A stretch of 43,527 bases of DNA from Planctomycetota bacterium (GTDB lineage Bacteria; Planctomycetota; Planctomycetia; Pirellulales; UBA1268). How positions within the stretch are numbered: position 1 is the stretch's first letter; every line of letters begins with the position of its first letter. Made by a program: the position numbers and the translations under genes. A model generated the notes under the pieces. The model was not told where the DNA came from, did no database searches, and saw nothing but the letters and a program-made list of their open reading frames with translations. Positions 16,538-38,353 of this stretch are shown one piece after another. The stretch lies in assembly GCA_003670865.1 (NCBI GenBank), contig QWQJ01000035.1:1-43527 (forward strand), given 5' to 3'.

Positions 16538-16900
16538 GCATCGCCCCTGCAAATTTCAGCTTTTCAAGCCTCGAGTGCGGCCGATGGCCCCCGCAGGCCT
16601 ACGACCCGTATAGATGGATCGACAGGCAGGACCCGAAAACTCAAACACTGGCCTATCCATCCGTCAGGGCTTGACAAAGCGTACGAATAGGGGAGGAAAA
16701 TGGCGTCGGGCAGCCCTCGTTTCAAGTCCGAATAACGCCCCATCGCTTCAAGACGGCGGCAGCCAATCGGGGGCACTAAGCCTCGGAAGGTCGCCGAATG
16801 GCCACCTTGGGAATGGCGAGTATCGAAGAGCCAAAGCCGTTTGGTATTGTACGAGACCCAGATTTCTCTCGCAGCGTTGTGCCTCAAAGGCCTCTCTTCC

Positions 16901-17296
16901 ATGCTCGAAATTATCAACCAACGCACTGCAGTGCCTTTCACGACGGCTGACGGCTCGACCATCCGGGAACTTCTGGCCCACCGCAATTCTTCGATTCGTC
17001 AGCAGAGTCTGGCTGAAGCGCGGCTTGCCCCAGGCCAGTCGACGACTCCTCACCACCACAAAGTCACCGAGGAGATTTACTACATTCTCAACGGCACGGC
17101 AGAAATGACTCTCAACAGCGACACGCAAGTCGTTGGCCCAGGGGATGCGATTGCCATTCCACCGAACGCTCGCCACACCATAAAAAATACTGGACGTGAA
17201 GAACTCGTCTTTCTTTGCACCTGCGCTCCTGGTTACGAACCTTCCGACACATTCCTCGAAAATCATTCCTCGCACATCACCCCAGATCTCTCCTAG
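16901..17296 (+). CDS. Cupin-domain protein
   Basis: Cupin motifs HHHKVTEEIYYILNGTAEM and GDAIAIPPNARHTIKNTG. ATG at 16901 (the track start at 16841 is a TTG). The stop lies 22 nt before the next gene. Confidence 0.7.
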   Translation: MLEIINQRTAVPFTTADGSTIRELLAHRNSSIRQQSLAEARLAPGQSTTPHHHKVTEEIYYILNGTAEMTLNSDTQVVGPGDAIAIPPNARHTIKNTGREELVFLCTCAPGYEPSDTFLENHSSHITPDLS

Positions 17297-17318
17297 CAAG
17301 AACGACGCGACTCCTTCA

Positions 17319-19028
17319 ATGCCTCCACCCGATGCTTTTTCCAGTGTCCTTCTCACCGAAGGCATTGTCAGCGCCGCTCAACTTGCCGAGGCCCTGCGCG
17401 TCTCTGCCGGCTCCGGTAAGAAAGTGCACGACGAAGTTGTAAGGCTCGGTTATGCGACTGGCGAAAAAGTGATGAAGGCTCTTGCCAAAGCTCATCGACT
17501 CAAGTTTATTGATCTCGCCGAAATCACTGTGCCTCAGCAGGTCATCGATCTTTTGCCCGAAAGCGTGGCTCGGGAAAACACGATTTTTGCAGTGGCAGAG
17601 AAGGGAACCGCGCTGCAGATTGCGACGTGTGATCCCACTGACATCGACACACAGGACAAACTGCGGTTCATTCTCAATCGTGATGTCGAGTCAGTTTTAG
17701 CTTTGCGGGAGCAGATCGTCGAAGCCATCAACCGTCATTACGGCACGGGTGACGGCGAGAGCGCCGACTCGATGCTGCAAGAATTTACCGACACGGCCAT
17801 CGATTTTACTGAAACGGCCGTCGAGCAGGCTGCAGCAGCCACTACCGAAGACACATCCGACGCCCCGGTCGTGAAGCTCGTCAATCTCATCATCACAGAG
17901 GCTGTTCAACTCCGTGCCAGCGACATTCATATCGAGCCATTTGAAGATCGGGTGAGAATTCGTTACCGGATTGACGGTCGGTTGGTCGAACGTGATAACC
18001 CCCCGCGTCGGTTGCTCGGGGCGATCCTCTCCCGCATTAAGATTCTTTCCAAGCTGGATATCGCGGAACGCCGCCGACCGCAGGACGGGCGCATCAAACT
18101 GACAGCTGACGGCAAAGATTACGACTTGCGTGTCAGCGTGCTCCCCACCAACCACGGTCAGTCGGTGGTGATGAGAATTCTAGACAAAGACAATATTAAA
18201 GTCGGCATTCGCCAACTCGGCCTGTCAGAGAATGACTTTCGTTCATTTAAGAACCTGATCCGTCGCCCCAACGGAATCATCCTCGTGACTGGCCCGACCG
18301 GCTCTGGAAAAACCACAACTCTCTACGCTTCGCTCAACGAGCTCAACCGCCCCGATACAAAGATCATCACGGCAGAAGACCCCGTGGAGTACTACTTGGC
18401 GGGCATTAACCAAGTAGAGGTGCGGCATCAGATCGGCCTCGACTTTGCGAGAGTCATTCGCTCCATGCTCCGGCAGGCGCCCAATGTGATCTTGGTGGGC
18501 GAAATGCGCGACACGGAAACTGCGCAGATGGGAATCCAAGCCTCGCTGACGGGGCATTTAGTCTTCAGTACGCTCCACACCAACGACGCCCCGGGGGCGA
18601 TCACCCGCATGATCGACATGGGAGTGCCAGCGTATCTCGTGGCTTCCAGCGTAATTGCCGTACTGGCCCAGCGGTTAGTCCGCGTCAATTGCACGAAGTG
18701 CAAACAGCCCTACCAACCGCTGGACACACAGATTGAAGCGGCTGGCATCACTCCTGAAATGCTCAAAGGCGCAACCTTTATGAAGGGCCGCGGCTGTTCG
18801 CACTGTCAAAAATCGGGCTACAAGGGCCGGTTGGGCATCTTTGAAATGATGGTTATGACGAGCAAACTGCGGGAGTTGGCCTTTCAAGGTGCTCCCACAC
18901 AGGATATTCGCCGGGCTGCAGTAAGCCAGGGCATGCGGGTAATGTTCAACGACGGGGTCCTCAAGGTGCTCCGCGGAATAACGACTTTCGACGAGGTTTT
19001 TCGCGTTTCCAAGCGGGCTGAGGAGTAG
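17319..19028 (+). CDS. GspE/PilB-family type II secretion / type IV pilus assembly ATPase (copy 1)
   Basis: Walker A GPTGSGKTTTL, Walker B/Asp box PNVILVGEMRD, His box TGHLVFSTLHTNDA, tetracysteine NCTKC...GCSHC, and a T2SSE_N-like N-terminal domain. ATG at 17319 follows the cupin stop; the ORF-track start at 17196 overlaps the cupin gene. Confidence 0.9.
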   Translation: MPPPDAFSSVLLTEGIVSAAQLAEALRVSAGSGKKVHDEVVRLGYATGEKVMKALAKAHRLKFIDLAEITVPQQVIDLLPESVARENTIFAVAEKGTALQIATCDPTDIDTQDKLRFILNRDVESVLALREQIVEAINRHYGTGDGESADSMLQEFTDTAIDFTETAVEQAAAATTEDTSDAPVVKLVNLIITEAVQLRASDIHIEPFEDRVRIRYRIDGRLVERDNPPRRLLGAILSRIKILSKLDIAERRRPQDGRIKLTADGKDYDLRVSVLPTNHGQSVVMRILDKDNIKVGIRQLGLSENDFRSFKNLIRRPNGIILVTGPTGSGKTTTLYASLNELNRPDTKIITAEDPVEYYLAGINQVEVRHQIGLDFARVIRSMLRQAPNVILVGEMRDTETAQMGIQASLTGHLVFSTLHTNDAPGAITRMIDMGVPAYLVASSVIAVLAQRLVRVNCTKCKQPYQPLDTQIEAAGITPEMLKGATFMKGRGCSHCQKSGYKGRLGIFEMMVMTSKLRELAFQGAPTQDIRRAAVSQGMRVMFNDGVLKVLRGITTFDEVFRVSKRAEE

Positions 19029-19420
19029 CCTTACAAGGGGAGCAACAGGGAGTCCGTGAGACTTTTAAAAAATAATTTTGTGCCCGTGACTTTTTTGTCG
19101 ATAAAGCGCATACTATTAGCGGTGCGATTGCCAGCCGTCAGGGGCCTGAGGCGAATCGCTCCTCGAGCCAGTGATCCGTGAGCGGCTTTTCTTTTTCCCC
19201 TGAACATTCTTTTTCGCCAGCAAATGCTCGGCGTTCGGCTGGAAGTTTACCCGCCGAAGTCCAACGGCCGAAGTTTGATTCGCCGGGAAGGTGCTGCGCG
19301 TTTGGGGATCACGCGAAGTCTCTTGTTGGTCCACCGCATCAGCATTCTCTCAGATATACTCAGATTCTAGGGAGGGCCTTGCGGTTTTCCGGTGTTTCCC
19401 ATGTCACAGGTCTTCATCCC

Positions 19421-21004
19421 ATGAATACGAATACCGCGGTACCCTCTCCATTGGTCGTCCAGATCGAGAAGCTCCTCAAAGTTGCCATCGATAACAACGC
19501 CAGCGAATTGCGACTCTCGGGGGGCGCCGCCCCGATGCTTCGCATTGATGACAAACTACGGCCGTTAAAAATCAATAAGGCGATCTCGGCAGAGGAAGTG
19601 CAGGCCATGGTGGCAGCGCTGTTACCACCGGGGGCCGACGATGCCGATTTTTTCTTTGCCACGTCGCTTGGCCGCTATCGGGGTCTTCTTCGTGACGTTT
19701 CTGGCACGCAGGTGCTTGTGTTCCAGCCTGCCCCTGAACCGCCGCCAGACAAACTTCTCGGCGACACATTCACTGAGACTGACGCCCCGCTTGAACTCGA
19801 CATTCAAGCCGATGATTCGGCTGACGATCAAGCTGACAAAAGCACAGGCAAGGGATCGGCCTTCGCCATGCCGGCAGTCGCAAGTGGCACGATTCAGATC
19901 GATAAACTCCTGAACGCGGCCGTGAAAAATGGCGTCAGTGACATTCACATCACAGTGGGTTTGCCTCCTGTTTTCCGCATCGACGGCCACATGAAGTCGC
20001 AGCCAACAAAGGTGCTAACCGCCGACGACACCAACGGCCTGATGAAGGCGATCACTCCCGAGCGTTGCCAAGCAGAACTCGCCGAAGTGGGCGGTTGCGA
20101 CTTCGGCTTCGCATTTGGCGATATGGCCCGTTTCCGCGTCAGTGTGTTCAAGCAGCGAGGTAATATTGCAATGGTGCTGCGGCAGATTCCCAACAAAATG
20201 CTCACGCCGGAACAACTCGGCGTGCCCGCCGTCTGCAAAAAACTAGCCACGCGACCGCGGGGACTTTTTCTCGTCACTGGCCCGACCGGTTCCGGCAAGA
20301 GTACAACGCTTGCCAGTCTGATCAATTACATCAACGAAAACTATGACCACCATATCATCACAATCGAAGACCCAATCGAGTTTTATCACCAGTCAAAAAA
20401 GAGTACGGTCAACCAACGCGAAATCGGCAATGATGTGCCCAGCTTTTCCGAAGCCCTGCGCCGTGCGTTGCGGCAGGACCCCGATGTGATCTTGGTGGGT
20501 GAGTTGCGGGATCTGGAAACAATCGAGGCGGCGATTTCTGCGGCTGAAACGGGCCACGTTGTTTTTGGCACGCTGCACACAACGGGAGCCCAAGGCACGG
20601 TCAACCGCATCATCGATGCCTTTCCCACGAATCAGCAAGAACAGGTGCGCACGCAACTCTCGACGGCCATCATCGGAGTGGTCTCGCAGGCCCTGCTGCC
20701 GAAGATCGGCGGCGGACGAGTGGCGGCCTATGAGATTCTTGTCTGCACGCCGGCCATCGGTAATCTGATACGCGAAAATAAAACGTTTCGCATCAACTCT
20801 GCGATTCAAACCGGCACCAAACTCGGCATGCAGCTTCTCGACGATAGCCTCTTCAAGCTTTGGAGCGAGAAGAAGGTGACGGAGGAAGATGTGCTCGCCA
20901 AATCGCAAAACCCCGACGAACTCGCCAAACGCATCGCCAACGCTAAACGCGGCATTTTTGAAGACGAAGAAGATGTGTCCCGTAAAGCCAAGGAGATGGG
21001 TTAG
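19421..21004 (+). CDS. pilT: PilT-family retraction ATPase with an extra N-terminal domain
   Basis: GPTGSGKSTTL, DPDVILVGELRD, TGHVVFGTLHT, and PAIGNLIRE (AIRNLIRE-type PilT motif). 527 aa from the ATG at 19421; the upstream part of the track ORF is low-complexity and not pilT-like. Confidence 0.9.
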   Translation: MNTNTAVPSPLVVQIEKLLKVAIDNNASELRLSGGAAPMLRIDDKLRPLKINKAISAEEVQAMVAALLPPGADDADFFFATSLGRYRGLLRDVSGTQVLVFQPAPEPPPDKLLGDTFTETDAPLELDIQADDSADDQADKSTGKGSAFAMPAVASGTIQIDKLLNAAVKNGVSDIHITVGLPPVFRIDGHMKSQPTKVLTADDTNGLMKAITPERCQAELAEVGGCDFGFAFGDMARFRVSVFKQRGNIAMVLRQIPNKMLTPEQLGVPAVCKKLATRPRGLFLVTGPTGSGKSTTLASLINYINENYDHHIITIEDPIEFYHQSKKSTVNQREIGNDVPSFSEALRRALRQDPDVILVGELRDLETIEAAISAAETGHVVFGTLHTTGAQGTVNRIIDAFPTNQQEQVRTQLSTAIIGVVSQALLPKIGGGRVAAYEILVCTPAIGNLIRENKTFRINSAIQTGTKLGMQLLDDSLFKLWSEKKVTEEDVLAKSQNPDELAKRIANAKRGIFEDEEDVSRKAKEMG

Positions 21005-21100
21005 CAACTTTCTCAGTTACCGTTCACGCACACAGACCACAGGCAACGACACGCACTCACTTAATGGAACGCATGGGGCAGGGCTTCCTGTCAAAAGACA

Positions 21101-22819
21101 ATGGCAATGAAACGCCTCGGAAAAATCCTTATTGATCTAGGCCTCGTGGACGAGACTCAACTCGCCTCGATGCTTGAAGAACAGTCGAACCGGGGCGGCG
21201 AACTGCTTGGCAAGGTGGGTCTCTCGCTCGGTTTCTTTACAGACGAGCAACTCGGCGAAGCCTTGGCCGAACAATGGGGCACGACATTTGTCACGCTCTA
21301 CGATCGCCCGCCAGCGCCAGCCGTGCTCAAACTTATCAGCGAGCCGATGGCACAGCTCTACCGCATCATTCCCTTAGAGCTCGCAGGCAACCGGCTCACG
21401 GTAGCCTCGGCCGATCCTCAAAAGATTCAAATAGCGGATGAATTACGGACATTTCTGGGCTACGACATCCACATCTGCGTGGCCACCGAGCCAGAGATTC
21501 AAAAGGCTATCGAGAAGTCCTACTCCTCCCACAACGAGAGCGTTGAATCGATTGTTGACGATCTTCAATCCGACAATGTTTTGGCTGCTCAAGCCGCTGC
21601 TGTCGGCCGTGAGGGGCCGACCGATCTGACAAGCGTAGAGGCTCTTGCCGAAAGTGCCCCGGTGCGAAAACTCTTAAATATGGTCCTCTTGATGGCAATT
21701 CGTGACGGTGCCAGCGATATCCATTTTGAGCCTTTTGAACATGAATTCCGCATTCGCCTCAAGGCCGATGGCGTCTTACAGGAAATGGTGCCGCCGCCCA
21801 AGCACCTCGCTTTTGCGATCACGACCCGGATCAAGGTGATGGCAAATCTCGACATCGCCGAGCGGCGATTGCCGCAAGACGGTCGCATCGAATTGAATGT
21901 TGGAGGCCACCCGGTTGACCTCCGAGTCAGCGTGCTGCCCACCTTGTTTGGTGAGAGCGTTGTCATGCGGGTTCTGGATCGAGGGGTTGTGTCACTTGAT
22001 TTAGAAAAAGTGGGAATGGAGCAGCAGTTGCTCCGGCAGTTTCGCGAGGTGATCATTCGGCCCAACGGCATTGTGCTGGTGACAGGCCCCACGGGCTCTG
22101 GCAAGACGACCACGCTCTACTCAGCGCTTTCAGAACTCAATACGATCGACGACAAGTTGATTACGACTGAGGACCCGGTCGAGTACGACATCGACGGCAT
22201 CATACAGGTGCCGATTGATGCAGAAATTGGCAATACGTTTGCTGCCTGCCTGCGGGCCATTCTTCGTCAGGACCCCGATCGGATTCTGGTCGGCGAAATC
22301 CGTGATGTGGAAACGGCTGAGATCGCCGTGCAAGCTTCGCTCACGGGACACATGGTGTTTTCAACACTCCATACCAATGACGCCCCCTCCACAGTCACGC
22401 GTCTTCGCGATATGGGAGTGCCCCCCTTTCTGATCACGGCCACCGTTGAGGCAATCTTAGCTCAGCGACTCGTGCGGCGAATCTGCGTTGACTGCCGAGA
22501 GGAAATCGTACCTGGGGCCGATGTGCTTGCAGACCTCGACCTGACAACAGATCAGACATTCGGCAAGAAGTTTTATCGGGGCAAGGGCTGTCCAAAGTGT
22601 CACGCCACAGGCTACAGGGGTCGTTTGGGCCTCTTTGAATTACTCATTATGAATGACGAAATGCGAGACATGATCATGCGGAATGCCTCAACGGGCGATC
22701 TCCGCGAAGCGGCCCGCAAAAACGGCATGAAGACGCTGCGCGAAGCGGGCGTCGAGGGCATTTTCAGTGGTTTTACCTCCGCTGAAGAAGTCATACGAGA
22801 AACCATCCTTGAAGCTTAA
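21101..22819 (+). CDS. GspE/PilB/MshE-family assembly ATPase (copy 2) with an MshEN-type N-terminal domain
   Basis: GPTGSGKTTTL, DRILVGEIRD, TGHMVFSTLHTNDA, tetracysteine CVDC...GCPKC. N-terminal RLGKILIDLGLVDETQLASMLEEQ. Confidence 0.9.
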   Translation: MAMKRLGKILIDLGLVDETQLASMLEEQSNRGGELLGKVGLSLGFFTDEQLGEALAEQWGTTFVTLYDRPPAPAVLKLISEPMAQLYRIIPLELAGNRLTVASADPQKIQIADELRTFLGYDIHICVATEPEIQKAIEKSYSSHNESVESIVDDLQSDNVLAAQAAAVGREGPTDLTSVEALAESAPVRKLLNMVLLMAIRDGASDIHFEPFEHEFRIRLKADGVLQEMVPPPKHLAFAITTRIKVMANLDIAERRLPQDGRIELNVGGHPVDLRVSVLPTLFGESVVMRVLDRGVVSLDLEKVGMEQQLLRQFREVIIRPNGIVLVTGPTGSGKTTTLYSALSELNTIDDKLITTEDPVEYDIDGIIQVPIDAEIGNTFAACLRAILRQDPDRILVGEIRDVETAEIAVQASLTGHMVFSTLHTNDAPSTVTRLRDMGVPPFLITATVEAILAQRLVRRICVDCREEIVPGADVLADLDLTTDQTFGKKFYRGKGCPKCHATGYRGRLGLFELLIMNDEMRDMIMRNASTGDLREAARKNGMKTLREAGVEGIFSGFTSAEEVIRETILEA

Positions 22820-22854
22820 ACCAAAAGAGGACAGGCAAGAGACCTGCCAGAGCC

Positions 22855-24183
22855 ATGCCAACATTTCAATTTGAAGCCATCGACGCCGCCACAGGCAAGG
22901 AAATCCGCGACTCTGTCGACGCAGCCACCGAGGCAGAGGCTCAGGCCACGATCCGGTCGATGGGCTACATGGTGACAAAGCTCAAGGCCAAAAAAGCCCG
23001 CGCCGCTAACGCTCCCGGCGTAAAAAAGAAACCTGGCCGCACGTTCGTCATTGGTGGCGTTAAAAGTAAAGACCTCACACTCTTCACTCGCCAACTCTCA
23101 ATTCTGCAGGATGCCGGCCTACCAATCCTGCGGAGCTTAAAAGTGCTCGCAGACATGCAAAAACCCGGCCGCTTAAAAAACTCACTGCTCGACACCTGCG
23201 ATGAAATTGAAGGGGGCAGTACGCTGTCGGAAGCATTTTCCAAGAGCCCGAAGGCTTTTGACAGGCTTTACTGCAACATGATTCGTGCGGGCGAAGCTGG
23301 CGGTGCTTTAGAAGTGATTCTGCGGCGGCTGGCCGAATTTCAAGAGCGCAGTCAGTCGCTCAAGCGCAAGGTCAAGGGGGCGATGGTCTATCCGATTGTC
23401 GTCGTCAGCGTGGCCGTCGGTATTTTGACGTTCATCATGATGAAGGTTGTGCCCCAGTTTAAAAAGATATTTGACGATTTTGGCAGCACCTTGCCGCCCA
23501 TGACACAGATTCTGATCGATATTTCAAACTGGGTCGTGAATTACTGGTACCTGATTCCGGCGATCCCCTTTGGAATCAATTTGATCATCAAGGGAATCAA
23601 GATGATTCCCTACGGTCGATTTGGCTGGGACTTATTTATTTTAAAGGCACCGATCTTCGGACAACTCGTCGAAAAAAATATTATGTCGCGTGCTGCCCGC
23701 ACGCTCGGCACGCTCCTGGCCAGCGGCGTGCCTATTCTGGAAGCACTCAACATCACCAAGGAAACCTCTGGAAACATGATGTTTGAGAAACTCTTCACAA
23801 AGGTTTCCGAATCGATTCGAGACGGTAATGCGATCGCCAAGCCCTTGAAAGAGTTTGCCGTACCACCGTTCAATGCGGTGGCGGTCTTGTTCTGGACCGT
23901 GTTTTGCCCTGGCATTGGTTTGCTCATGTATCTGATGCGATACAAGCAGCCGGTTGTCGATGATTTGGTAGTCAACATGGTGGATGTCGGCGAAGAGTCG
24001 GGCGAACTCGACACGATGCTTTATAAAGTGGCCGACACGTACGACGAGGAAGTCGCCGTTCTGACTGAAAGTCTGACGAGCTTAATGGAACCGCTCTTGA
24101 TTATCTTCCTTGGTGGTGCCGTCGGTTTCATTGTCATTGCCCTCTTTATGCCACTCATCAAATTGATTCAGGATCTTTCATGA
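22855..24183 (+). CDS. PilC/GspF-family inner-membrane platform protein
   Basis: Two T2SSF repeats: LTLFTRQLSILQDAGLPILRSL...NMIRAGEAGG, and MSRAARTLGTLLASGVPILEAL...NMVDVGEESGELDTML. Hydrophobic TM segments are present. 442 aa. Confidence 0.9.
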   Translation: MPTFQFEAIDAATGKEIRDSVDAATEAEAQATIRSMGYMVTKLKAKKARAANAPGVKKKPGRTFVIGGVKSKDLTLFTRQLSILQDAGLPILRSLKVLADMQKPGRLKNSLLDTCDEIEGGSTLSEAFSKSPKAFDRLYCNMIRAGEAGGALEVILRRLAEFQERSQSLKRKVKGAMVYPIVVVSVAVGILTFIMMKVVPQFKKIFDDFGSTLPPMTQILIDISNWVVNYWYLIPAIPFGINLIIKGIKMIPYGRFGWDLFILKAPIFGQLVEKNIMSRAARTLGTLLASGVPILEALNITKETSGNMMFEKLFTKVSESIRDGNAIAKPLKEFAVPPFNAVAVLFWTVFCPGIGLLMYLMRYKQPVVDDLVVNMVDVGEESGELDTMLYKVADTYDEEVAVLTESLTSLMEPLLIIFLGGAVGFIVIALFMPLIKLIQDLS

Positions 24184-24193
24184 GAACCTATTT

Positions 24194-24997
24194 ATGAAGC
24201 GCCACGCGTTCACGCTTGTCGAACTCCTCGTCGCAATTTCCATCATCTCTTTACTGATGATGATGGTTGCTGCGGCAGCGTCAGCCGCACAGAGCAACCG
24301 TAAGGTTGCGGCCACGCGTGCAACGATTGCCAAGCTCGATTTAATCCTGACGTCGCAGCTCAGTACCTATAATTCCAAGGACGTGAGCGGTACAACCGCT
24401 GCCCGTGGTGCGGCCATTCGAAAAATGATTACGGCAGATCTGCCCGATCGGTGGACAGATGTGGCTTACATGGAGGCAAATGTGGGCCAATTCACAGCGG
24501 CACCGCAACGAGCCTTTATCGGCACGACTCCCGGTTCAAGTCAGTACGCCGGCGCCGAATGCCTGTTCATGATCATTATGCAGGGTGGTTTTGTGAATTG
24601 CCTTGACTGTGGGGAACTCAGGTCGATTGAAAAGGGTGATAAAGACAGCGATGGTGCCCAAGAGTTTTGGGACGCATGGGGAAACCCCATCGACTACATT
24701 CTCTGGCCGTATGCCGTTGAATTGCCACCGGGCAGTGGTGCCCGTTTTTTCTCTGGGAGCCGACAGCCCGATCTACCGGGTGTATCGTCGTCATCGCCAA
24801 TGCTTGGCCTGCGTCCACTCATCTATTCGCCAGGTGTGGATGGTGAATATGGCTTAGAGCGCAACGGCGAAGCGGCCAATTTGGGAGGCGACTGCGGCAA
24901 CTGGCAAATGTCGCCCACAAGTACTTCGGCAGGCCCAGAGAATTCCTCGAATGCCGCAGACAACATCAGTAATTTTGATCAGGAGGCCAAGCGATGA
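24194..24997 (+). CDS. GspG/PulG-like pseudopilin (prepilin-type N-terminal methylation domain)
   Basis: MKRHA|[16 protein letters not shown] class III signal. Motif-level matches to GspG: DAWGNPIDY (DPWGxxY), YSPGVDGEYG (SLGxDG) and ADNISNF (DDIxNW). 267 aa, larger than a typical GspG. Confidence 0.7.
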   Translation: MKRHAFTLVELLVAISIISLLMMMVAAAASAAQSNRKVAATRATIAKLDLILTSQLSTYNSKDVSGTTAARGAAIRKMITADLPDRWTDVAYMEANVGQFTAAPQRAFIGTTPGSSQYAGAECLFMIIMQGGFVNCLDCGELRSIEKGDKDSDGAQEFWDAWGNPIDYILWPYAVELPPGSGARFFSGSRQPDLPGVSSSSPMLGLRPLIYSPGVDGEYGLERNGEAANLGGDCGNWQMSPTSTSAGPENSSNAADNISNFDQEAKR

Positions 24998-26990: not shown

Positions 26991-27000
26991 GGTCGCACGT

Positions 27001-30000
27001 ATGTGGGCAAGGCAGAGTGTGAGTATGAGAGGAGAAGATTTCGCTATGAAAAATTCACTGAGGCTACGGAGTCGGCATCGTTGTGACGTGAGTTGCAACC
27101 GTTGCTGCAGCGACGCCGACCGCAGCGGCATGCTGCTGTTGATTGTGCTCATGATGCTCTCGCTCTTCATGGTGACGGGAATTGCTATGCTCACTATGGC
27201 CACGCGAGCGCGGTCCGTGGCCCGCGCCAATCTAGTGGCTCGAAGTAAACTTTCCGGTACGGAGGAGATTGCTCGAACCGCCCTCGACGAAGCATTGCTG
27301 GCAGCCTTGCGAGGCACGAAGGTTGGTGCCAACGATCCAATCACAGAAAGCATCCTTGCCGATAAGTATGGCGATCCAATTATTGGAAAAGGATCGATCA
27401 AAGCACCAACGTCTGCCGTCCCGTCGACAACTCACTTCATGGCCTCACTCAGCGATCTTTTGCCAGCCCAAACAGCCCCCTCCCGTCTGAATGGCCGCGT
27501 CCTGACGTTCATTCCCGCTGGTGATGACGGAGACGTTGCCAGTTATAGAATCCTGTTGGCCGCAAAGAATCCGGCAGTAGCAACTGATATTATTTGTCTG
27601 CTGCGAAAAACGGCAGTGAGTCGAGCGCAGACGGCTCCTAAGCTACAATCGGACATTATTATCAACGGTCGCGAGTATACGCCGCTGGCTGCTGGTGCTG
27701 CTGGGGTAAGCCCTGAGGCGTACGACGCCTTTGATGACAGCAATAAGTGGCTGGCACAGTTAACAGTCGCCAAAGGTCAAGTGAGTGCCGTTCCGCGAAC
27801 TTCCTTTGGTGGCAACGCGGTTGTCGATAATGATGGCGACGGTATCGTGGACGGTGGCTGGCTGGCGAATGTCATCCCCGCTGCGACCTCGCCTTTGGGC
27901 GGTACGCTTACATTCCAAGTCTCCTATCACATCCTTGATCTCGACGGGCGTATCAACATCAACGCGCAAGGGCCCGCTGAACCGCCAAATCAAAATGACT
28001 ATGCCAACACGCCGCCGGTTCCCCTAGGCATGGGGTACGGTCCGGCCGATATGGATCTTTCCCAACTGTTGTCGTCTGGTCCCGCTTCAACGCTTATTGG
28101 TGGCGGACAGCCGTCGGTCAATTGCGCAGACCCGACTGCCGATCAGCGACGCAGTCCACCGGCCGTGGGTCCTGTAGAGGGTCGTTATGGCCCCAACGGA
28201 AAGCCCGGGGGCAGCGGTGACGACACTCCATCGTACGCGTCCATGATTGCCGGTAACTCATCGGGTGATCTCAAAGCCCGTGTGAAGGTCTTTATGACGG
28301 CGCCAGCTGCCAATCAGGTAACAGCAACGCTGACCATGTATCAGCCTGATTGGATAACGAATCTGGATCAGACAGACAATCCCTACCAGCTTCGATTAGA
28401 TGCTGGAGCCCCGCGATTTAGCACTCCACGGAGGCCGTTGCCTGACGATTCCTCAAAACAGGACGACAGTCCTTACACGCTTTCAGAACTCGAGCGTGTA
28501 TTGCGTTCATTTGATGCCGACGCTACGCAGTTACCACAGCGACTGGCTGCCATTTTAGAAATCCTCGGCGATCGAAACCGCACAATGATCACCACTGACA
28601 GTTGGGATACCCCTGCCTTAACGGGAGTCGCTGCTCGAAAAATAGAAGATTTTATTGCCACCCTGCCGGAAGAAAAGGTTTACGATAACACGACATTGCC
28701 TCCGGAATTAGTGACCGGCTTGCGATTTGATATTGGCAAACCTCTGATCACGACAGGAATTACCAGTCCTGGAGCCGTCAGCTCAACGACTTTTGCTAAA
28801 CAGCTGTATCAGGTATTAATCGCTCTGGGAGAAACAAATCATGCCAAAGCTGCTCAGTGGGCTGTCAATGTTGCCGATTTCCGCGACACGGATTCAAGAA
28901 TGACCCGCTTCCAGTACGACACAGATCTTTCAAATGGTTGGAGCGTGGGTACCGCCTCGCCAGGTGTGTTTGGCGTTGAAAGGCCTGAAATTATAATTAC
29001 GGAAACTGCTGCATGGCGAGATACTGAGACGAACCAAGCACAACTCTTCGTTAGCCTCCACCGCCCAGCCTGGAAGGCGGTGCTTACCGGATTGGCAGGA
29101 AAAACACCGACGCCAGCGGAGACCGAACTGATCGATCCCGTGCTGGAGACTGCAGGCGCGCTCGATTTGGCAAAAACCCATAATAATAACAACACCGGTA
29201 GTCCGATCTGGCAACTACGATTTGATACCAACAAAGTCGTTCGTTTTCAGAAAGACTCGCAAAATGTGAGTCCAGCAGGAGCAGTGACCACTACAAATCC
29301 AACGCCCTTGGTTGGCATGACATCCTCAACAGCCATTGCTACGACGCCTTCCACAAAATTGGCGGCCAACGGCTATCTTTGTGTTCATTCCCCGACTCCT
29401 ACAAAATATACGCTTGCCATGCCAGGATTTCCCGTCGATAAAGGAGGTTCTTTTCAGCTTCCCGTTAGTTCCGCAGTGGGAACCGTCTATTTAGAACGAC
29501 TGGCAAATCCGGCAAGTGCATGGAACGTGACGAGTAACCCATATATTGTTGTCGATTCAGCTACCGTTTCGATACCTAACACCGGGGCTCAGGAAGCACT
29601 CGCCAAGCAACGGCGAAAGGGACCGGCCGACACGGTCGCCGCTGCAGATATCGCCACTCGCCTGCAATCTTTTTGGCGTAGGGAGTGGGTAAGCGATGTA
29701 AGCACGACCCTTGGTGCCTACACAGCGGCCACTCCTGCCCAGCCAGCGTCATGGCTGCATTGGCCGAATCGCCCTTTTGTGAGTCAGGCCGAGTTGGCCT
29801 TAGTGTCTGCGAGCAGTCCAGAAAATTTCCTTAACAATTACACATTCCCGCCCGACTCGTTGGCTTCTGCTCAGAATAATCTGATTCTCGATGCCGTCTG
29901 TGTTCCCTCCCGCTTTTGCCAACATTCAACAACGCTCGTTGAGACAAGCTGGTCAACAACGCTGCAGAATCTCACATGGGCCTATCCAGAGTGCAAGGCC

Positions 30001-30495
30001 GGGAGTGTCTTTTCAAGTTGGCGCGAGCCCGGCCGCGTGAATGTAAATACTTTTCCGGTCGATAACGCAGAACCAGCTGCGGATGCTCCAGGTATATGGG
30101 CAGCATTATCGGGCGGAACAAATCCTGCCAATCCATTTGTGGGCGGTGCTGCAGCGATGAGCATCAGGGAAATGCTCTCGCTCAAGAATCCCAACGCACC
30201 GGTCTACTCGAAGGATTATAAGGCGGGTGATCCCAAAGACAACAACCCATTTTTAGACAACAACCCATTTTTGTCGATGGCGCTGCCGGTTCGCCTGGCG
30301 AACGTGGGCACCATTCGTTCGCAGGTCTTTGCTGTTTGGATCACGGTTAAGGTTACGGACGATTCTGCTAATGCACCTTCACCAACAACAAAACGTTTGT
30401 TTGCGATTGTGGACCGTTCGATTCCAGTCGGCTACTCGCCGTCAGAGAACCTTAATGTTAGCGACTGCATACGGTTAAAAAGAGTGCTCGACTAA
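27001..30495 (+). CDS. Giant GspK-like minor pseudopilin (1164 aa)
   Basis: Hydrophobic pilin-like N-terminus without Glu5 (RSG|MLLLIVLMMLSLFMV), as in GspK. AYDAFDDSNKW, VVDNDGDGIVDGGW and ILDLDGRININA resemble the GspK D-x-D region and the G(K/R)xNxN hallmark. YTLSELERVLR resembles the GspK SELxxV segment. Alternative starts at 27025 and 27046. Confidence 0.6.
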   Translation: MWARQSVSMRGEDFAMKNSLRLRSRHRCDVSCNRCCSDADRSGMLLLIVLMMLSLFMVTGIAMLTMATRARSVARANLVARSKLSGTEEIARTALDEALLAALRGTKVGANDPITESILADKYGDPIIGKGSIKAPTSAVPSTTHFMASLSDLLPAQTAPSRLNGRVLTFIPAGDDGDVASYRILLAAKNPAVATDIICLLRKTAVSRAQTAPKLQSDIIINGREYTPLAAGAAGVSPEAYDAFDDSNKWLAQLTVAKGQVSAVPRTSFGGNAVVDNDGDGIVDGGWLANVIPAATSPLGGTLTFQVSYHILDLDGRININAQGPAEPPNQNDYANTPPVPLGMGYGPADMDLSQLLSSGPASTLIGGGQPSVNCADPTADQRRSPPAVGPVEGRYGPNGKPGGSGDDTPSYASMIAGNSSGDLKARVKVFMTAPAANQVTATLTMYQPDWITNLDQTDNPYQLRLDAGAPRFSTPRRPLPDDSSKQDDSPYTLSELERVLRSFDADATQLPQRLAAILEILGDRNRTMITTDSWDTPALTGVAARKIEDFIATLPEEKVYDNTTLPPELVTGLRFDIGKPLITTGITSPGAVSSTTFAKQLYQVLIALGETNHAKAAQWAVNVADFRDTDSRMTRFQYDTDLSNGWSVGTASPGVFGVERPEIIITETAAWRDTETNQAQLFVSLHRPAWKAVLTGLAGKTPTPAETELIDPVLETAGALDLAKTHNNNNTGSPIWQLRFDTNKVVRFQKDSQNVSPAGAVTTTNPTPLVGMTSSTAIATTPSTKLAANGYLCVHSPTPTKYTLAMPGFPVDKGGSFQLPVSSAVGTVYLERLANPASAWNVTSNPYIVVDSATVSIPNTGAQEALAKQRRKGPADTVAAADIATRLQSFWRREWVSDVSTTLGAYTAATPAQPASWLHWPNRPFVSQAELALVSASSPENFLNNYTFPPDSLASAQNNLILDAVCVPSRFCQHSTTLVETSWSTTLQNLTWAYPECKAGSVFSSWREPGRVNVNTFPVDNAEPAADAPGIWAALSGGTNPANPFVGGAAAMSIREMLSLKNPNAPVYSKDYKAGDPKDNNPFLDNNPFLSMALPVRLANVGTIRSQVFAVWITVKVTDDSANAPSPTTKRLFAIVDRSIPVGYSPSENLNVSDCIRLKRVLD
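30238..30273 (+). repeat. 18-bp tandem duplication (17/18 identical) inside the GspK-like gene
   Basis: GACAACAACCCATTTTTA / GACAACAACCCATTTTTG, encoding DNNPFL-DNNPFL. Confidence 0.9.
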
Positions 30496-30533
30496 GTATC
30501 TCGGTGGACTAACTCCATGGTGGTGTTCGCATA

Positions 30534-31901
30534 ATGAATGGCTTTTACTCAAACGATGCTTCGCAGCGTGATGCGACGCACTCTTATGGTGTACGACAGG
30601 ACTGTTGCGGCAGGCCCGGGTTCACGCTTATCGAGCTACTTGTGAGTGCGGCGATTGCGATGAGTGTCATGGGAGTTGTGGCCAGTCTTTTTGCGCTCTT
30701 TGGACGGTCGGCAGCAAACGGTCAATCGATTGTTGATATGTCTGGACGCATGCGGACGGCTGCCGACAAGCTCTCTCAAGATCTCAAGGGGTTGACGGTG
30801 CGGCTGCTGCCCCCAGCAAATCCGGAGAGTGCCACTGGTTACTTTGAACTGATTGAAGGCCCAGTCAACGATGCCAAATCCTCGCAAGGCGATTGTGACG
30901 ATACGCTGCTGTTTACGACGCGATCAACAACTCGCCCCTTTGTCGGCCGTTATAAGAGCTCTCAGCTTGAATATAAGAGCTCTCAGCTTGAATCGCCGGT
31001 GGCTGAGGTGGCTTGGTTTTCCAAAGCCTCGCCGACCCAGGTGGTGAGCGGTCTGACGCTCTACACGATCTATCGCCGACAATTACTGGTAACGGCATAT
31101 GTCGGCGCAGAGCCTTTTTTTGTCAAAGGTCGCGATACAAATAACCAGATCGTTGGCGTCCTTCCGGCTGCCTACAACAATTATGACCTTTCGCTGCGGG
31201 TAGACCCTGTTACATCGGCACTTGTGCCAAACTCATTGGCCGACCTTACGCTAAGAGAAAATCGCTTTTGTCATTCTGGAGTACCGCCTGTTTTTTCTTC
31301 AATTTCATCTTCATCTGTCTTTGACTCCACCAGTGGTCGCGAGGGGGAAGACGTTGTGCTCACAAATGTCCTTGCATTTGACATTCGCGTGTTTGATCCA
31401 AAGGCCCCAACAAGAGTCAGCAGTGTAACCACACCCGCCTCCGGATCGACTCCAAGCACAACGGTCATCAATACGGTGATCTACCCGACAGACCCGGGTT
31501 GGGAAGCTGGAACTGTGGCCGCTGCGCCAGCGCCCAGTATCGTAGGTGGCTTTGTTGATCTCGGAACTGGCAGCGGTACCACGCAGGGGTCTGCGACCAA
31601 CACGACTCAGACCAGCGTACTGACTTCTCCCAGTAGCAACGCGCCGTTCGTGACAACCTACGACACATGGAGCACGCATTACGAATCCAACGGCATCGAC
31701 GAGGATGGCGATGGCATCGTTGACCGAGGCACCAACGGAGTCGATGACAACGGCGATCTTGCTCCGGACGATCCAAGTGAAGCTGAATACCCGCCCCCCT
31801 ATGCGGTGCCGCTGCGGGGCATAGAAGTTCGCATTCGCTGTTATGACCCCAGCAGCAAACTCGTTCGACAGGTCACTGTTCGCCAAATATTTTCGCGATA
31901 A
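30534..31901 (+). CDS. GspJ/PilW-like minor pseudopilin
   Basis: GRPG|FTLIELLVSAAIAMSVMGVVASLF after a 29-aa leader. C-terminal NGIDEDGDGIVDRGTNGVDDNGD Asp-rich segment. Terminal strands RGIEVRIRCYDPSSKLVRQVTV. Confidence 0.6.
   Translation: MNGFYSNDASQRDATHSYGVRQDCCGRPGFTLIELLVSAAIAMSVMGVVASLFALFGRSAANGQSIVDMSGRMRTAADKLSQDLKGLTVRLLPPANPESATGYFELIEGPVNDAKSSQGDCDDTLLFTTRSTTRPFVGRYKSSQLEYKSSQLESPVAEVAWFSKASPTQVVSGLTLYTIYRRQLLVTAYVGAEPFFVKGRDTNNQIVGVLPAAYNNYDLSLRVDPVTSALVPNSLADLTLRENRFCHSGVPPVFSSISSSSVFDSTSGREGEDVVLTNVLAFDIRVFDPKAPTRVSSVTTPASGSTPSTTVINTVIYPTDPGWEAGTVAAAPAPSIVGGFVDLGTGSGTTQGSATNTTQTSVLTSPSSNAPFVTTYDTWSTHYESNGIDEDGDGIVDRGTNGVDDNGDLAPDDPSEAEYPPPYAVPLRGIEVRIRCYDPSSKLVRQVTVRQIFSR
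30951..30992 (+). repeat. Perfect 21-bp tandem duplication inside the GspJ-like gene
   Basis: TATAAGAGCTCTCAGCTTGAA x2, in frame, encoding YKSSQLE-YKSSQLE. Confidence 0.95.
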
Positions 31902-31955
31902 CAATCACATTCGTCCGTATCAATTCACCGACACCATTTTTTGTGGAGATTTAGT

Positions 31956-33017
31956 ATGCACGCTACCCGCATCCCCGTTCGACGAGGCTTTACGCTTGTG
32001 GAACTCCTTGTTGTGATTGCCATTATCGGCCTCCTGATGGGGCTCTTACTGCCGGCGGTGCAAAATGCCCGCGAGGCGGCCAGGCGGCTCGCCTGCTCAA
32101 ACAATTTGTATCAATTGGCCTTTGCCAGTACGCGGCACTCTGAGTCCAATGGCTTTATACCTGGCTGGCGAAATAAAGCTGCGGGAAACGGCATCACCTT
32201 TGGCTGGCCTGTCTCGCTACTGCCATTCGTGGAGCGGCGAGACCTAGCCACTGCGATCACAGGCACGACCACAAGTTCTGCGTATGTCGATGCGGCGAAG
32301 TCGTACGTTAGTTTATTTGTCTGCCCATCGAGTCCACCAAGCAATCAGTCAGATGCATGGCTTAGCTACGGTGGCAATGCGGGCTACGGAACGACGGTCG
32401 CGGTGACTTCCTCGCCAGGTGCTGATGGCAAAGGCAGTGGCACAATGATCGATTACTCACTATCAGGCAATCAGACAAATAGAATCGACGTAGAGTATGT
32501 CTCTAATGGCGATGGTACGGCCAATACGGCGTTACTCAGCGAAAAGTGTGGTAAGTTTGTGGGCATCACTGGGCCGAAGTGGTCGGCTTCGATCAGTGGT
32601 GCGTCAGCAAATCCAATTGGAAAATGGCCATCGGGTAATCCACAGCCCCCGCCGGTTGTCCAGGCCGACGTAAATCCTGCGGTCATCGCACAACTCCCTG
32701 TGTTTCTCTTTACAGGCACCGGTACTTCGCCGAGTTTTAGTGCGTCGCTGCCCACGGGCGTCAGCGGTACGAGCAACATCGATTTTCCTGCCGCTGGCAC
32801 GACGGCGGCTTACACAGACAATCGGTTTCCAAGTTCCAATCACTCCGGCGGCGTCAGTATTGCTTTCTGTGATGGGCATGTGCTGTTTATTCGGAGCACC
32901 ATTGATATCGGCACGTACACCCAAATCATGACATCCAACGCAAAAGAGTCGATCACATGGAATAGTGGAACAGGTCAAGACAATGTCGGCATTTACGACG
33001 AGGGAAAATTGCAGTAA
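31956..33017 (+). CDS. DUF1559 / prepilin-type H-X9-DG protein
   Basis: VRRG|[40 protein letters not shown] is the classic DUF1559 N-terminus. [12 protein letters not shown] is an exact H-X9-DG. ATG at 31956 with GGAG 7 nt upstream (the track start at 31941 is a TTG). Confidence 0.8.
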
Positions 33018-33074
33018 CGCAGAAAAGAGTCCGGCCCCTTTTTCACACATAGACGTGGATGGCTCAGGCTGTTA

Positions 33075-33097
33075 TCCTCTCGGGCTATCTGAGAGGA
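33075..33097 (+). promoter_or_regulatory. Possible SD-sequestering hairpin before the PA14-DUF1559 gene
   Basis: TCCTCTC-gggctatct-GAGAGGA. The 3' arm is the only SD-like sequence, 7 nt before the ATG at 33105. Confidence 0.25.
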
Positions 33098-33104
33098 CAT
33101 TCTC

Positions 33105-34304
33105 ATGACTTATAACCTTCGATATCTACTGAGGCAAAAAGCCCATAGGAATCGGCCTGCACCACAGGCTCTCAAGGGTTATCCGCCGGCGTTTACGCTT
33201 GTGGAGGTGCTCATCGTTCTTGCCATCATCGGGATTCTAATTGCGATTTTGTCCTCCGCTCTTTTGCAGGCCAAGGCGTCGAGTCAAACTGCTACGTGTG
33301 CCAATAATCTACGACATGTTGGTATCGCTTTCCAGCGATACCAACATGCATTCGGAGGTAAAGTGCCCGATGCCAGCACCGTCCTCGATGCGACTGAAAA
33401 GGGTTTGGGAGCGTATCTCGATGTCTCTCGGGATCAGCGATCTGCAGCCTATATATGCCCGACAGTGTTGTCGCAGGTCACCATTGCTGGGAATAATCAA
33501 TTTAATAATTCTTACGGCGTCAATCCCTGTGTCGGTCGGTTGCTTGCCGAGTCGGCCAAAGTCGTGGCGCTCGATGCGAATGCCGACTTAGTTGACTACG
33601 AGGGAACCAATAAAGAACTCTGGCAATCTGATGTTGATCCTCGTCACTTTGGCAGCATGAATGTCTTGTTTTGTGACGGCCATGTTGATCGCCACCTTTC
33701 GGATGAACTCAATCCTTACGCCGAGGGCACTGTTCAGCAACTGCCAGTCGTTTTGGCTTATTGGAAACCGGAATTGAGTGGCTGCGACTGTCGTACGAGT
33801 GGATTTGGCCGCGGCCAAGGTCTTTTGGGGGAATATTACACAACCGATCAGTGGGCCGGTACGCCTGAGGCATCACGACTTGATCCGACACTCGAACTGC
33901 CGTTTGGAAATCCGGATTTTTATGGAGTGCCGTACGATGTGCCATTACCGGGGGCGACGACAAGCCGGTCCGCACCTCTCAAAACAGCCAAATTTCGCGG
34001 GTCTATTTTAGGCCTGACAAACGAACCCTACCAATTCCACGTTTGCTGTGACAATGAGGTTTGGGTCTATGTCAATGGTAGCCTAGTAATTTCTCGATCT
34101 GCAGGAGGAGCTGGAGGCGTGCAGCAATGGCAGGCCGGCACGACAACGGTCGACTTATCGAACAACCGCTGGATCGATTTTGAGGTTCGTTGGCGAGAAG
34201 AAGGCGTCGGCTCCCCCAGCCACCTCATGGTTCGTTGGTCTTGCCCCTCGTCGCCAGCACCAACCAAAATTCCATCGAGCCAGCTCCGTCCAGCCCGGCA
34301 GTGA
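33105..34304 (+). CDS. DUF1559 / H-X9-DG prepilin-like protein fused to a C-terminal PA14 domain
   Basis: YPPA|FTLVEVLIVLAIIGILIAIL...ATCANNLRHVG. HFGSMNVLFCDG = H-X9-DG. The C-terminal GLLGEYYTTDQWAG...FRGSILGLTNEPYQFHVCCDNEVWVYVNGSLVI...VRWREEG is PA14-like. Confidence 0.8.
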   Translation: MTYNLRYLLRQKAHRNRPAPQALKGYPPAFTLVEVLIVLAIIGILIAILSSALLQAKASSQTATCANNLRHVGIAFQRYQHAFGGKVPDASTVLDATEKGLGAYLDVSRDQRSAAYICPTVLSQVTIAGNNQFNNSYGVNPCVGRLLAESAKVVALDANADLVDYEGTNKELWQSDVDPRHFGSMNVLFCDGHVDRHLSDELNPYAEGTVQQLPVVLAYWKPELSGCDCRTSGFGRGQGLLGEYYTTDQWAGTPEASRLDPTLELPFGNPDFYGVPYDVPLPGATTSRSAPLKTAKFRGSILGLTNEPYQFHVCCDNEVWVYVNGSLVISRSAGGAGGVQQWQAGTTTVDLSNNRWIDFEVRWREEGVGSPSHLMVRWSCPSSPAPTKIPSSQLRPARQ

Positions 34305-34324
34305 CAGCTGCGGCGAAACTCTTC

Positions 34325-34945
34325 ATGCAACGGGGCCTCTTTATGAAGACATGCAGGTGTGTCAGCAATCGATTTCTGACGTCTGTTGTCGTCTCGATCC
34401 TCATCTCGGGCTGTGCAAAGCAACCCCCCTTTCCTCGCACAAGGGATGAAATTATTCAAGAAAGTTTGTCGCTGCCAGCCTTGTATCTGACCGAAAAAAC
34501 CCGACAGAGAGTCGTCGCTCCGGAGAGCGAAGGCGTGCTGATAGTCGACAAAAAGAGCGGGGAAATCGCCTGGCGGGCGCTGGTTTGCACGGCGCCCGAT
34601 TGCCCGGGAAAAGGGCCCAAAGGGGAACCCCATATCTGCAGCGAAAATGACCTAAGTTATTTCGTCAAAACGGATGGCTCATTGGGCTACGATCCAAAAC
34701 GGATGCCGCTTGATCCGACCAAAATCGGGATGTGCCAGAAGTGCAACTCCGTGAGGAACCCCGCCACTGAAACGGAGCAAAAGCGACAACAATACACCCA
34801 GTGGGTTCAAAACTATGTGCTGCCCGAGTCAATCATCCGCAAAAAACAACTCGAGGAGGAATTAAAACGGCGGGTTCAATACGAACGCCAGCATCGCATC
34901 CTTCGACCAGACTCTCAACAAAAAATGGTGATCCCTCAGCCTTAA
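34325..34945 (+). CDS. Lipoprotein with a Cys4 zinc-ribbon-like motif and a charged C-terminal helix
   Basis: Lipobox VSILISGC after MQRGLFMKTCRC...; CTAPDC...HIC...CQKC; Lys/Glu/Arg/Gln-rich tail. The alternative ATG at 34343 is also in frame. Confidence 0.6.
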   Translation: MQRGLFMKTCRCVSNRFLTSVVVSILISGCAKQPPFPRTRDEIIQESLSLPALYLTEKTRQRVVAPESEGVLIVDKKSGEIAWRALVCTAPDCPGKGPKGEPHICSENDLSYFVKTDGSLGYDPKRMPLDPTKIGMCQKCNSVRNPATETEQKRQQYTQWVQNYVLPESIIRKKQLEEELKRRVQYERQHRILRPDSQQKMVIPQP

Positions 34946-38320: not shown

Positions 38321-38353
38321 TAAACCCAAGCGGCAGCAGGCGGTTACAAAAAG

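Follow-up and report, generated by a model that had tools for sequence, protein, structure and literature searches.

Results

Gene Content and Organization of the Locus

The DNA analyzed here, referred to as the window, is the stretch of 43,527 nucleotides (nt) of contig QWQJ01000035.1 (assembly GCA_003670865.1), and the subject of this study is the span from 16901 to 34945, where 13 open reading frames (ORFs) follow each other head-to-tail on the + strand, as does every substantial gene in this span. Three motor ATPases (ATP1, PilT, and ATP2) are followed by the platform protein PilC, the prepilin-type proteins p267, p320, and p345, the giant protein p1164, the prepilin-type protein p455, and two H-X9-DG pilin-like proteins. 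Together these genes probably represent the motor, platform, and filament-subunit block of a type IV filament machine of hybrid composition, confined to the Planctomycetota. The likely gene starts were set from independent gene calls on six metagenome or metagenome-assembled genome (MAG) contigs that carry the same locus with a protein identity of 93–100%. The arrangement of the 13 genes proposed in a first-pass annotation of this DNA is borne out by the ORFs, and Pfam and NCBIfam confirm the gene families that it named, i.e., Cupin_2, MshEN plus T2SSE (twice), TIGR01420, T2SSF, and two DUF1559/H-X9-DG proteins.

The genes are tightly packed. At three junctions the stop codon of one gene overlaps the start codon of the next, with ATGA at 24994 (p267/p320) and at 25953 (p320/p345) and GTGA at 34301, at the start of the last gene. 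The two ATGA overlaps had been noted before and the GTGA overlap is an addition. The previously reported gaps of 10–96 nt hold for the remaining junctions except that between ATP1 and PilT, where 392 nt (19029–19420) precede the conserved PilT start at 19421. This is the largest gap of the locus, and a gap of 135–480 nt recurs at this place among relatives. It may contain an internal promoter or regulatory region. Rfam detected no riboswitch in the locus and nothing in the ATP1–PilT gap, and a promoter and terminator scan of the locus gave a result no better than that for shuffled sequence.

The Motor and Platform Proteins

ATP1 (17319–19028; 569 aa) and ATP2 (21101–22819; 572 aa) both combine an MshEN N-domain with a T2SSE domain (PF00437; 448.5 and 459.8 bits), both contain tetracysteine motifs, and their mutual identity is 42.7%. 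The Walker A, Walker B, Asp-box, and His-box motifs are retained in all three ATPases of the locus. With the equivalog models, ATP1 and ATP2 score 619.2 and 627.2 bits, respectively, for PilB (TIGR02538; cutoff 675.65) and 604.3 and 614.2 bits for GspE (TIGR02533; cutoff 630.25), i.e., below the cutoff in each case. Their best solved relatives are the full-length PilB proteins of Geobacter and Myxococcus (493 bits for ATP1 and 545 bits for ATP2), while Vibrio GspE yields 398 and 414 bits, respectively. Because of the MshEN N-domain and these best matches, both large ATPases resemble type IVa PilB/MshE-type ATPases more than GspE-type ones. The earlier description of PilT as flanked by two GspE/PilB-like ATPases is, consequently, correct with respect to the flanking but not with respect to a GspE type.

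The two ATPases differ in their N-termini. ATP2 possesses a tandem MshEN motif for binding of cyclic di-GMP (c-di-GMP), which passes NF053729 (40.2 bits; cutoff 38) and which, as RLGKILIDLGLVDETQLASMLEEQ, is kept in nearly all ATP2 orthologs, whereas the N-terminus of ATP1 and those of its orthologs are without the canonical c-di-GMP motif RLG...Q.

The PilT-type retraction ATPase (19421–21004; 527 aa) scores 483 bits with TIGR01420 (cutoff 319.1) and its translation contains the AIGNLIRE motif. Its N-terminal extension (19421–19900) duplicates the N-domain of the same protein, the two being 29% identical over 101 aa (E 9e-8); this extra copy is kept in Pirellulales-like relatives (PilT of ca. 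515–530 aa) and absent in those labeled Thermoguttaceae (362–381 aa). The PilC/GspF platform protein (22855–24183; 442 aa) contains two copies of T2SSF (PF00482; E 3.8e-60) and scores 358.6 bits with the GspF and 355.3 bits with the PilC equivalog, both under the respective cutoffs. Its second cytoplasmic domain carries a hydrophobic insertion of ca. 30 aa (PPFNAVAVLFWTVFCPGIGLLMYLMRYKQ; aa ca. 341–372, at ca. 23875–23970) that is present in all eight aligned relatives from across the clades and absent from Escherichia coli GspF, and that may form an extra membrane hairpin. The gene order pilB-pilT-pilC is usual for the type IVa pili of Myxococcus and Geobacter; what is unusual here is the combination of an extra PilB with GspG-type subunits. 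Judged from sequence, the motor, consisting of two PilB-type hexameric ATPases, PilT, and a PilC platform, resembles that of type IVa pili and not that of the type II secretion system (T2SS).

The Prepilin-Type Subunits

A six-frame motif scan of the window revealed exactly six canonical class III signals (G/A↓FTLxE), all of them inside the locus, and no pilin-like ORF of <200 aa, in agreement with the first-pass annotation. A seventh signal of class III type, G↓MLLLIVL, which lacks Glu5, is located on p1164. Five of the six canonical signals exceed the Pfam cutoff for N_methyl; that of the second H-X9-DG protein remains just below it (20.8 vs. 21.2 bits) and passes TIGR02532 only. Every subunit exceeds its T2SS counterpart in size by a factor of two to four. 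None of the Pfam and NCBIfam models for GspG, H, I, J, and K and for PilV, W, and X reaches its threshold on the proteins of the window, and searches at E values up to 10 and with fragments did not provide a GspH/I/J/K or PilV/W/X assignment for p320, p345, p1164, or p455. Family alignments built from related loci were, therefore, compared by hhalign with the Gsp and Ppd pseudopilins of E. coli K-12.

In this comparison p267 (24194–24997; 267 aa, of which 263 aa lie past the predicted cleavage site; N_methyl) aligns with residues 1–135 of GspG with a probability of 97.2% (E 3.5e-11), whereby FxDxWGxPIxF falls on DPWGNDY and PLIYSxGPDG on LLSAGPDGE. It is the only one of the subunits so compared in which the similarity to GspG extends past the N-terminal helix. 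With the GspG model TIGR01710 it scores 21.6 bits (cutoff 88.85), Pfam T2SSG does not match, and the p267 family profile matches PDB sequences over the N-terminal helix only. On the basis of these motifs p267 is best described as a probable enlarged GspG-like pseudopilin, and it is the candidate major subunit. Many p267 homologs have Ala, and one has Ser, at position −1 relative to the cleavage site, as is unusual for substrates of PilD/GspO-type peptidases.

The remaining subunits are less readily assigned. For p320 (24994–25956; 320 aa; N_methyl), a minor pseudopilin candidate, hhalign yields GspG (95.5%) and GspH (91.5%), largely over the N-terminal helix; for p345 (25953–26990; 345 aa), another such candidate, in which N_methyl is found at aa 61 and the true start may be internal, it yields PpdB (91.7%) and GspI (71%); and for p455 (30534–31901; 455 aa; N_methyl) it yields PpdA (82.6%), PpdB (71%), and GspJ (64%). 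The signals of all three are dominated by the N-terminal helix. Some database pipelines name homologs of p455 PulJ, PulG, or “PilW family,” while none of 42 p455 homologs matches the T2SSJ and PilW models of Pfam. The AlphaFold2 model of p455 (pLDDT 64) retrieved no PDB match at E ≤ 1e-3 with Foldseek, an EpsI:EpsJ chain ranking 50th (E 4.6), in a whole-chain search that is a weak test. Hence, of the “full G-H-I-K-J set” that had been announced for this locus, the G is found back, in p267, and a K-like nature of p1164 is suggested by motifs (see below); the labels H, I, and J are guesses from position, and so is the supposedly non-canonical “K-before-J” order, which depends on such names.

p267 is also homologous to the DUF1559 family (probability 98.8%), and homology links the four pilin-type families p267, p320, p455, and DUF1559 to one another. 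The first DUF1559/H-X9-DG pilin-like protein (31956–33017; N_methyl) matches PF07596 (E 3.6e-32) and TIGR04294 (30.8 bits; cutoff 19), and its gene is placed after the p455-type gene in most relatives that share the architecture of the window. The second (33105–34304; N_methyl, weak DUF1559, and TIGR04294 at 21.6 bits with the same cutoff) is lineage-specific. Its C-terminal ca. 175 aa (33777–34301) show a weak match to PA14 (E 0.0015; 18.8 bits), below the cutoff of 24; if this match were true, the protein would be a modular pilin with a lectin-like, carbohydrate-binding tail. DxDxDG-type loops occur in p267 (aa 149), p1164 (aa 276), and p455 (aa 389 and 404). This motif forms a calcium site in PilY1.

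The Giant Protein p1164

The gene at 27001–30495 encodes a protein of 1164 aa with a GspK/PilX-like N-terminus, the start of which may alternatively lie at 27046. The two features for which it had been called GspK-like, the lack of Glu5 and the presence of GRxNxN, are confirmed: this motif is present twice, at aa 316 and 1011, and both copies are invariant across 46 homologs, in which DLDGRxNxN, DNDxDGxxDG, and REPGRVNVNT are likewise invariant. The two hNhN motifs, DLDGRININ (aa 313) and GRVNVNT (aa 1011), follow one another as do FNLNAL and INLNML of E. coli GspK. It is these motifs that support a K-like nature, which we regard as tentative. Neither p1164 nor 40 homologs match any model in Pfam or NCBIfam, and the family profile found nothing among PDB sequences. 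The AlphaFold2 model of p1164 is confident (pLDDT 77.7, pTM 0.83) and has an N-terminal helix of 60 residues; Foldseek did not recover a PDB match at E ≤ 1e-3 for it, GspK being ranked ninth (E 0.23), and such a search with a multidomain whole chain as query is a weak test. Full-length homologs of p1164 number in the hundreds, all annotated as hypothetical.

Search for Partner Genes

The first-pass annotation had remarked that no secretin, alignment complex, or prepilin peptidase is encoded here. Pfam scans of the larger ORFs of the window indeed revealed no secretin, PilM/N/O/P, GspC/L/M, or A24 peptidase. In the ca. 10 kb past each end of the window, where such partners might have continued the cluster, only housekeeping genes are present (RibD, FTR, and PheST on one side; KdsB, PutA, and a major facilitator superfamily (MFS) transporter on the other). 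Searches by phmmer with E. coli GspD, HofQ, GspO, HofM, and other partners against the six-frame ORFs of the window and 85 related loci (1.28 Mb) gave no match, with GspE (88 matches) and GspF (43 matches) as controls; for GspC/L/M, which also had no match in these loci, a single-sequence search is insensitive since these proteins evolve fast. Taken together, an A24 prepilin peptidase, PilM/N/O/P, and PilQ were not found in the window, its flanks, or the 85 related loci. The absence in cis of genes for secretin, alignment complex, and peptidase is real and conserved across these 85 loci.

Distribution, Conservation, and Variation

In a scan with one genome per species, at least 550 genomes contain a gene for a p1164 relative, and the best 80 are almost all labeled Planctomycetota. 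An exhaustive profile search for the p1164 family yielded 4474 representatives at 50% identity (E ≤ 1e-3), 1384 of them at E ≤ 1e-30. The order ATP1-PilT-ATP2-PilC-pilins-giant-pilin(-DUF1559) is kept in dozens of loci labeled Pirellulales, Planctomycetaceae, or Thermoguttaceae; the cupin gene, the second DUF1559 protein, and the lipoprotein gene fall outside the conserved module in more distant relatives. The module is specific for the Planctomycetota and does not occur throughout the Planctomycetes-Verrucomicrobia-Chlamydiae (PVC) group, so that the label “PVC-type” given to it earlier is too wide. Inconsistent organism labels (Kuenenia, Chitinophagaceae, Phenylobacterium, Planctomicrobium) were not used for taxonomy. 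Six related contigs, for example, are labeled Chitinophagaceae, Chitinophaga, Candidatus Kuenenia, or Phenylobacterium, at odds with their planctomycete-type content, and the binning or naming of these MAG contigs is likely in error.

Across relatives, the motor proteins are 60–89% and the proteins of the subunit block 25–50% identical. Two architectures occur, which differ in whether three or four genes of prepilin type separate PilC from the giant gene. In the loci with four (L038, L042, L043, L049, L061, L070, and others), an extra pilin of ca. 220–245 aa directly follows PilC, and this protein may be the true major subunit in the lineages concerned.

Variation within the species, as seen on the six contigs with the same locus, is distributed unevenly. 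The motor genes are 99.3–100% identical, and values are 93–97% for p1164, the most variable gene, 96.5–98% for p455, and 97.4–98.3% for p345. In p1164 the variation peaks at aa 700–850 and 1050–1100. This pattern suggests diversifying selection on exposed parts, and its concentration in p345, p1164, and p455 fits an exposed tip complex.

Probable Relation to an Essential Operon of Planctopirus limnophila

Rivas-Marin et al. (2023, Nat Commun, PMC10632474) listed Plim_0410–0401 of P. limnophila as T2SS E, a twitching-motility protein, T2SS E, T2SS F, and six hypothetical proteins, with the six downstream genes found in Planctomycetes only and with a predicted eight-gene operon (Plim_0409–Plim_0402) that begins at PilT. 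The annotated gene order is the same as that of the locus studied here. This shared pattern, and an operon break that matches the 392-nt gap between ATP1 and PilT, make it very likely that the two loci are orthologous; the P. limnophila locus may have either the three-pilin or the four-pilin architecture.

According to the transposon-sequencing entries of that study, nine of the ten genes are essential, Plim_0409 (PilT) being “unclear,” and Plim_0408 and Plim_0410 are the sole essential ones among the eight GspE paralogs given there. The same entries mark as essential PilM (Plim_0076), which is located away from the locus, and the hypothetical genes Plim_0077 and Plim_0078 that follow it, and as “unclear” Plim_1841, an A24 peptidase outside the Tad loci; the two secretins that are listed, Plim_0794 and Plim_3839, are non-essential, and of the 68 DUF1559 paralogs of P. 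limnophila two are essential (PMC10632474). The study did not dissect the six hypothetical genes and reported no pseudopilin, GspG-like, or giant cap-like assignments. The architecture has, therefore, already been noticed, as an essential operon to which no function was assigned (PMC10632474), but has never been characterized, and our literature searches did not find a paper characterizing this machine.

Neighboring Genes

The first and last of the 13 genes are the least tied to the machine. The Cupin_2 protein (16901–17296; 131 aa; Pfam E 2e-19) is encoded upstream of ATP1 in close relatives only and is probably the product of a neighbor gene, not a part of the machine. The putative lipoprotein (34301–34945; 214 aa), an ORF supported by a gene call, has the lipobox ISGC and Cys pairs; it has no match in Pfam or NCBIfam and no tblastn match in the related loci that were fetched, and the six contigs of the same species stop before its gene.

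A distance of 348 nt separates the cupin gene from the end of a divergent ORF of 928 aa upstream of it (13766–16552, − strand), which is kept within the same species. This ORF and one of 728 aa (697–2883, − strand) have no convincing match in Pfam or NCBIfam, with a single weak TPR hit (14.6 bits; cutoff 312). A sigma-54-dependent activator is encoded at 2979–4607 (+ strand), 12 kb upstream of the filament locus. The genes for tRNA-Lys(ttt) and tRNA-Leu(cag) (38353–38587, − strand) are situated between an Rce1-like gene and glmS.

Discussion

A Probable Planctomycete Type IV Filament Machine

The combination of a type IVa-like motor with a GspG-like subunit, a giant K-like protein, and H-X9-DG pilins in one conserved locus is, in our opinion, most plausibly explained by a hybrid type IV filament machine of the Planctomycetota, of which this locus would be the motor, platform, and subunit block. 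In P. limnophila the genes for PilM and an A24 peptidase are located elsewhere in the genome, and for this reason the partners that are missing here are probably missing from the locus and not from the system. The absence noted in the first-pass annotation, therefore, stands for the locus and probably does not stand for the machine as a whole.

Such a machine could operate as follows. A prepilin peptidase encoded elsewhere would cleave the class III signals, and p345, p1164, and p455 would form an initiation or tip complex, in which p1164, by analogy, is the candidate cap. Without Glu5, such a cap would be confined to the tip, as in GspK and PilX. The PilB-type ATPases would drive PilC, by which p267 would be polymerized beneath the tip, with H-X9-DG paralogs as possible further subunits, either alternative or accessory. 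ATP2 would respond to c-di-GMP through its MshEN motif, and ATP1 would either be regulated differently or serve another set of subunits. Retraction of the filament would be performed by PilT, and PilM and like partners would be supplied from elsewhere in the genome. Because the probable ortholog Plim_0410–0401 is essential for growth, the machine probably serves a core function in the envelope or in nutrient acquisition and not an optional one in adhesion or motility.

Several points weigh against this interpretation. The filament, its retraction, and the binding of c-di-GMP are predictions from sequence. Neither family models nor fold searches support a GspH, I, J, or K identity for any subunit and, consequently, the model of the tip complex is an analogy. 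Which protein is the major subunit is uncertain in view of the extra pilin in the second architecture. The residue at −1 is Ala instead of Gly in p267, p320, and the second DUF1559 protein (at 24206, 25018, and 33189, respectively), so that processing by a standard peptidase is not assured. The orthology with Plim_0410–0401 has been derived from gene order and annotation, not from sequence comparison, and P. limnophila may possess secretins or peptidases beyond those listed for it.

Alternative Explanations

The locus could also belong to a divergent but true T2SS, in which a short periplasmic pseudopilus of p267 pushes folded exoproteins, e.g., enzymes that degrade polysaccharides, through a channel in the outer membrane whose gene is located elsewhere. 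The GspG-like motifs of p267 and the GspK-like N-terminus and NxN motifs of p1164 would fit this, and databases annotate homologs as PulG, PulJ, or “type II secretion.” Also in its favor, in a Verrucomicrobiota isolate a PulG-like pseudopilin, a family with 67 paralogs there, sits in an alginate-utilization cluster and a pseudopilin is among the proteins over-expressed on alginate. We nevertheless consider a true T2SS unlikely. A conserved PilT gene lies within the locus, the large ATPases have MshEN N-domains and match full-length PilB better than GspE, and GspC, L, M, and D were not found in cis in the 85 related loci. Moreover, the within-species variation of the putative tip proteins suggests surface exposure, and P. 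limnophila requires the corresponding locus but neither of the two secretins listed for it.

Another explanation is that of an ordinary type IVa pilus (T4aP), for adhesion or twitching, with its genes scattered as in Pseudomonas; the locus would then be a pilB-pilT-pilC plus minor-pilin operon, with pilA, pilD, and pilMNOPQ elsewhere. PilB, PilT, and PilC do find their best matches among type IVa proteins in the Myxococcus/Geobacter order, the PilM gene of P. limnophila, as listed, sits apart from the locus, and one NCBI record labels a p455 homolog “PilW family.” This explanation does not account for a second PilB in the locus, nor for the subunit beside PilC, which is GspG-like and not a type IVa pilin, there being no small pilin in the window, and both PilB and PilC score under the NCBIfam equivalog cutoffs. 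If the orthology with Plim_0410–0401 holds, the essentiality of the latter, next to dispensability of the two secretins listed, is a further objection; we know of no well-studied model species in which classical type IVa pili are essential. A scattered T4aP is, in our view, distinctly improbable. That the genes are juxtaposed by chance, or that the large “pseudopilin” ORFs are annotation artefacts and not genes, might be thought because curated models leave the globular parts of p320, p345, p1164, and p455 uncovered. Many genomes, however, contain the ORFs with conserved protein sequences and in an unchanged order, p1164 yields a confident structural model, and three of the junctions are start–stop overlaps; an artefact is thus of negligible probability, and in view of the conserved synteny we reject chance juxtaposition.

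Possible Significance for the Planctomycete Envelope

A hybrid filament machine in the Planctomycetota would bear on features of their envelope that lack an explanation, i.e., the crateriform pits at membrane contacts, the dextran-binding fibers, and the uptake of macromolecules into a large periplasm. Boedeker et al. (2017) found that dextran-binding fibers emerge from the crateriform structures, by which the two membranes are held together, and the machinery for macromolecule uptake is still described as unknown in a 2025 review of the phylum. The locus supplies concrete candidates for these questions. As a speculation, which we hold to be rather unlikely but worth stating, the machine might build retractable fibers of the crateriform structures. 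Polysaccharides or proteins would be bound by its variable tip (p345-p1164-p455) and by exchangeable H-X9-DG/DUF1559 pilins, some of which would bear lectin-like modules of the kind of the PA14-like tail described above, and PilT would reel this cargo into the enlarged periplasm, i.e., a “fishing” device for import. The same machine could be the “press stud” between inner and outer membrane that has been seen by cryo-tomography, a role that, if true, would explain both the essentiality and the dispensability of the listed secretins.

Apart from these possibilities, it is in itself unusual for growth to depend on a type IV filament machine. The locus also ties the huge families of DUF1559 paralogs to a specific assembly machine, and its giant cap-like protein belongs to a family of ca. 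4500 clusters at 50% identity that has no relatives in curated family libraries.

Comparison With Known Systems

The first-pass annotation regarded the locus as a hybrid that fits the textbook description of neither T2SS nor T4aP, and as uncharacterized, which agrees with our results apart from its having been noticed already in PMC10632474. With the T4aP of Myxococcus xanthus and Geobacter it shares the best match to full-length PilB, the PilT family, the PilC platform, and the order pilB-pilT-pilC. It differs in the second PilB between PilT and PilC, in the duplicated N-domain of PilT, in the insertion in PilC, and in its GspG-like and H-X9-DG subunits, which are present in place of a type IVa major pilin, while pilMNOPQ and pilD were not found in cis. 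With the T2SS pseudopilus GspG-H-I-J-K it has in common the GspG motifs DxWGNP and SxGxDG of one subunit, followed by several prepilin-type proteins, and a large protein without Glu5 that carries two hNhN motifs, like E. coli GspK. In contrast to the T2SS, no T2SS family model is reached, GspC, D, L, M, and O were not found, the ATPases are of the MshEN type, and PilT is present. The definitions of T2SS and T4aP in current use would, therefore, both reject this lineage.

Other systems share single components with it. ATP2 has the motif RLGxxLxDLGLxxxxQLxxxLxxQ of the MshE-type ATPases of the mannose-sensitive hemagglutinin (MSHA) pilus and passes NF053729, but ATP1 is without this motif and no other MSHA component is present. 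The similarity to the Verru_Chthon cassettes (TIGR02596–02600) concerns cassette models C and D and is confined to the N-terminal helix (TIGR02596, 20–29 bits with a cutoff of 70; TIGR02599, 16–22 bits with a cutoff of 256), and no cassette-A model matches the giant family. The expansions of PulG-like/H-X9-DG (DUF1559) proteins in the PVC group are represented in the locus by its two H-X9-DG proteins and by p267, which is homologous to DUF1559.

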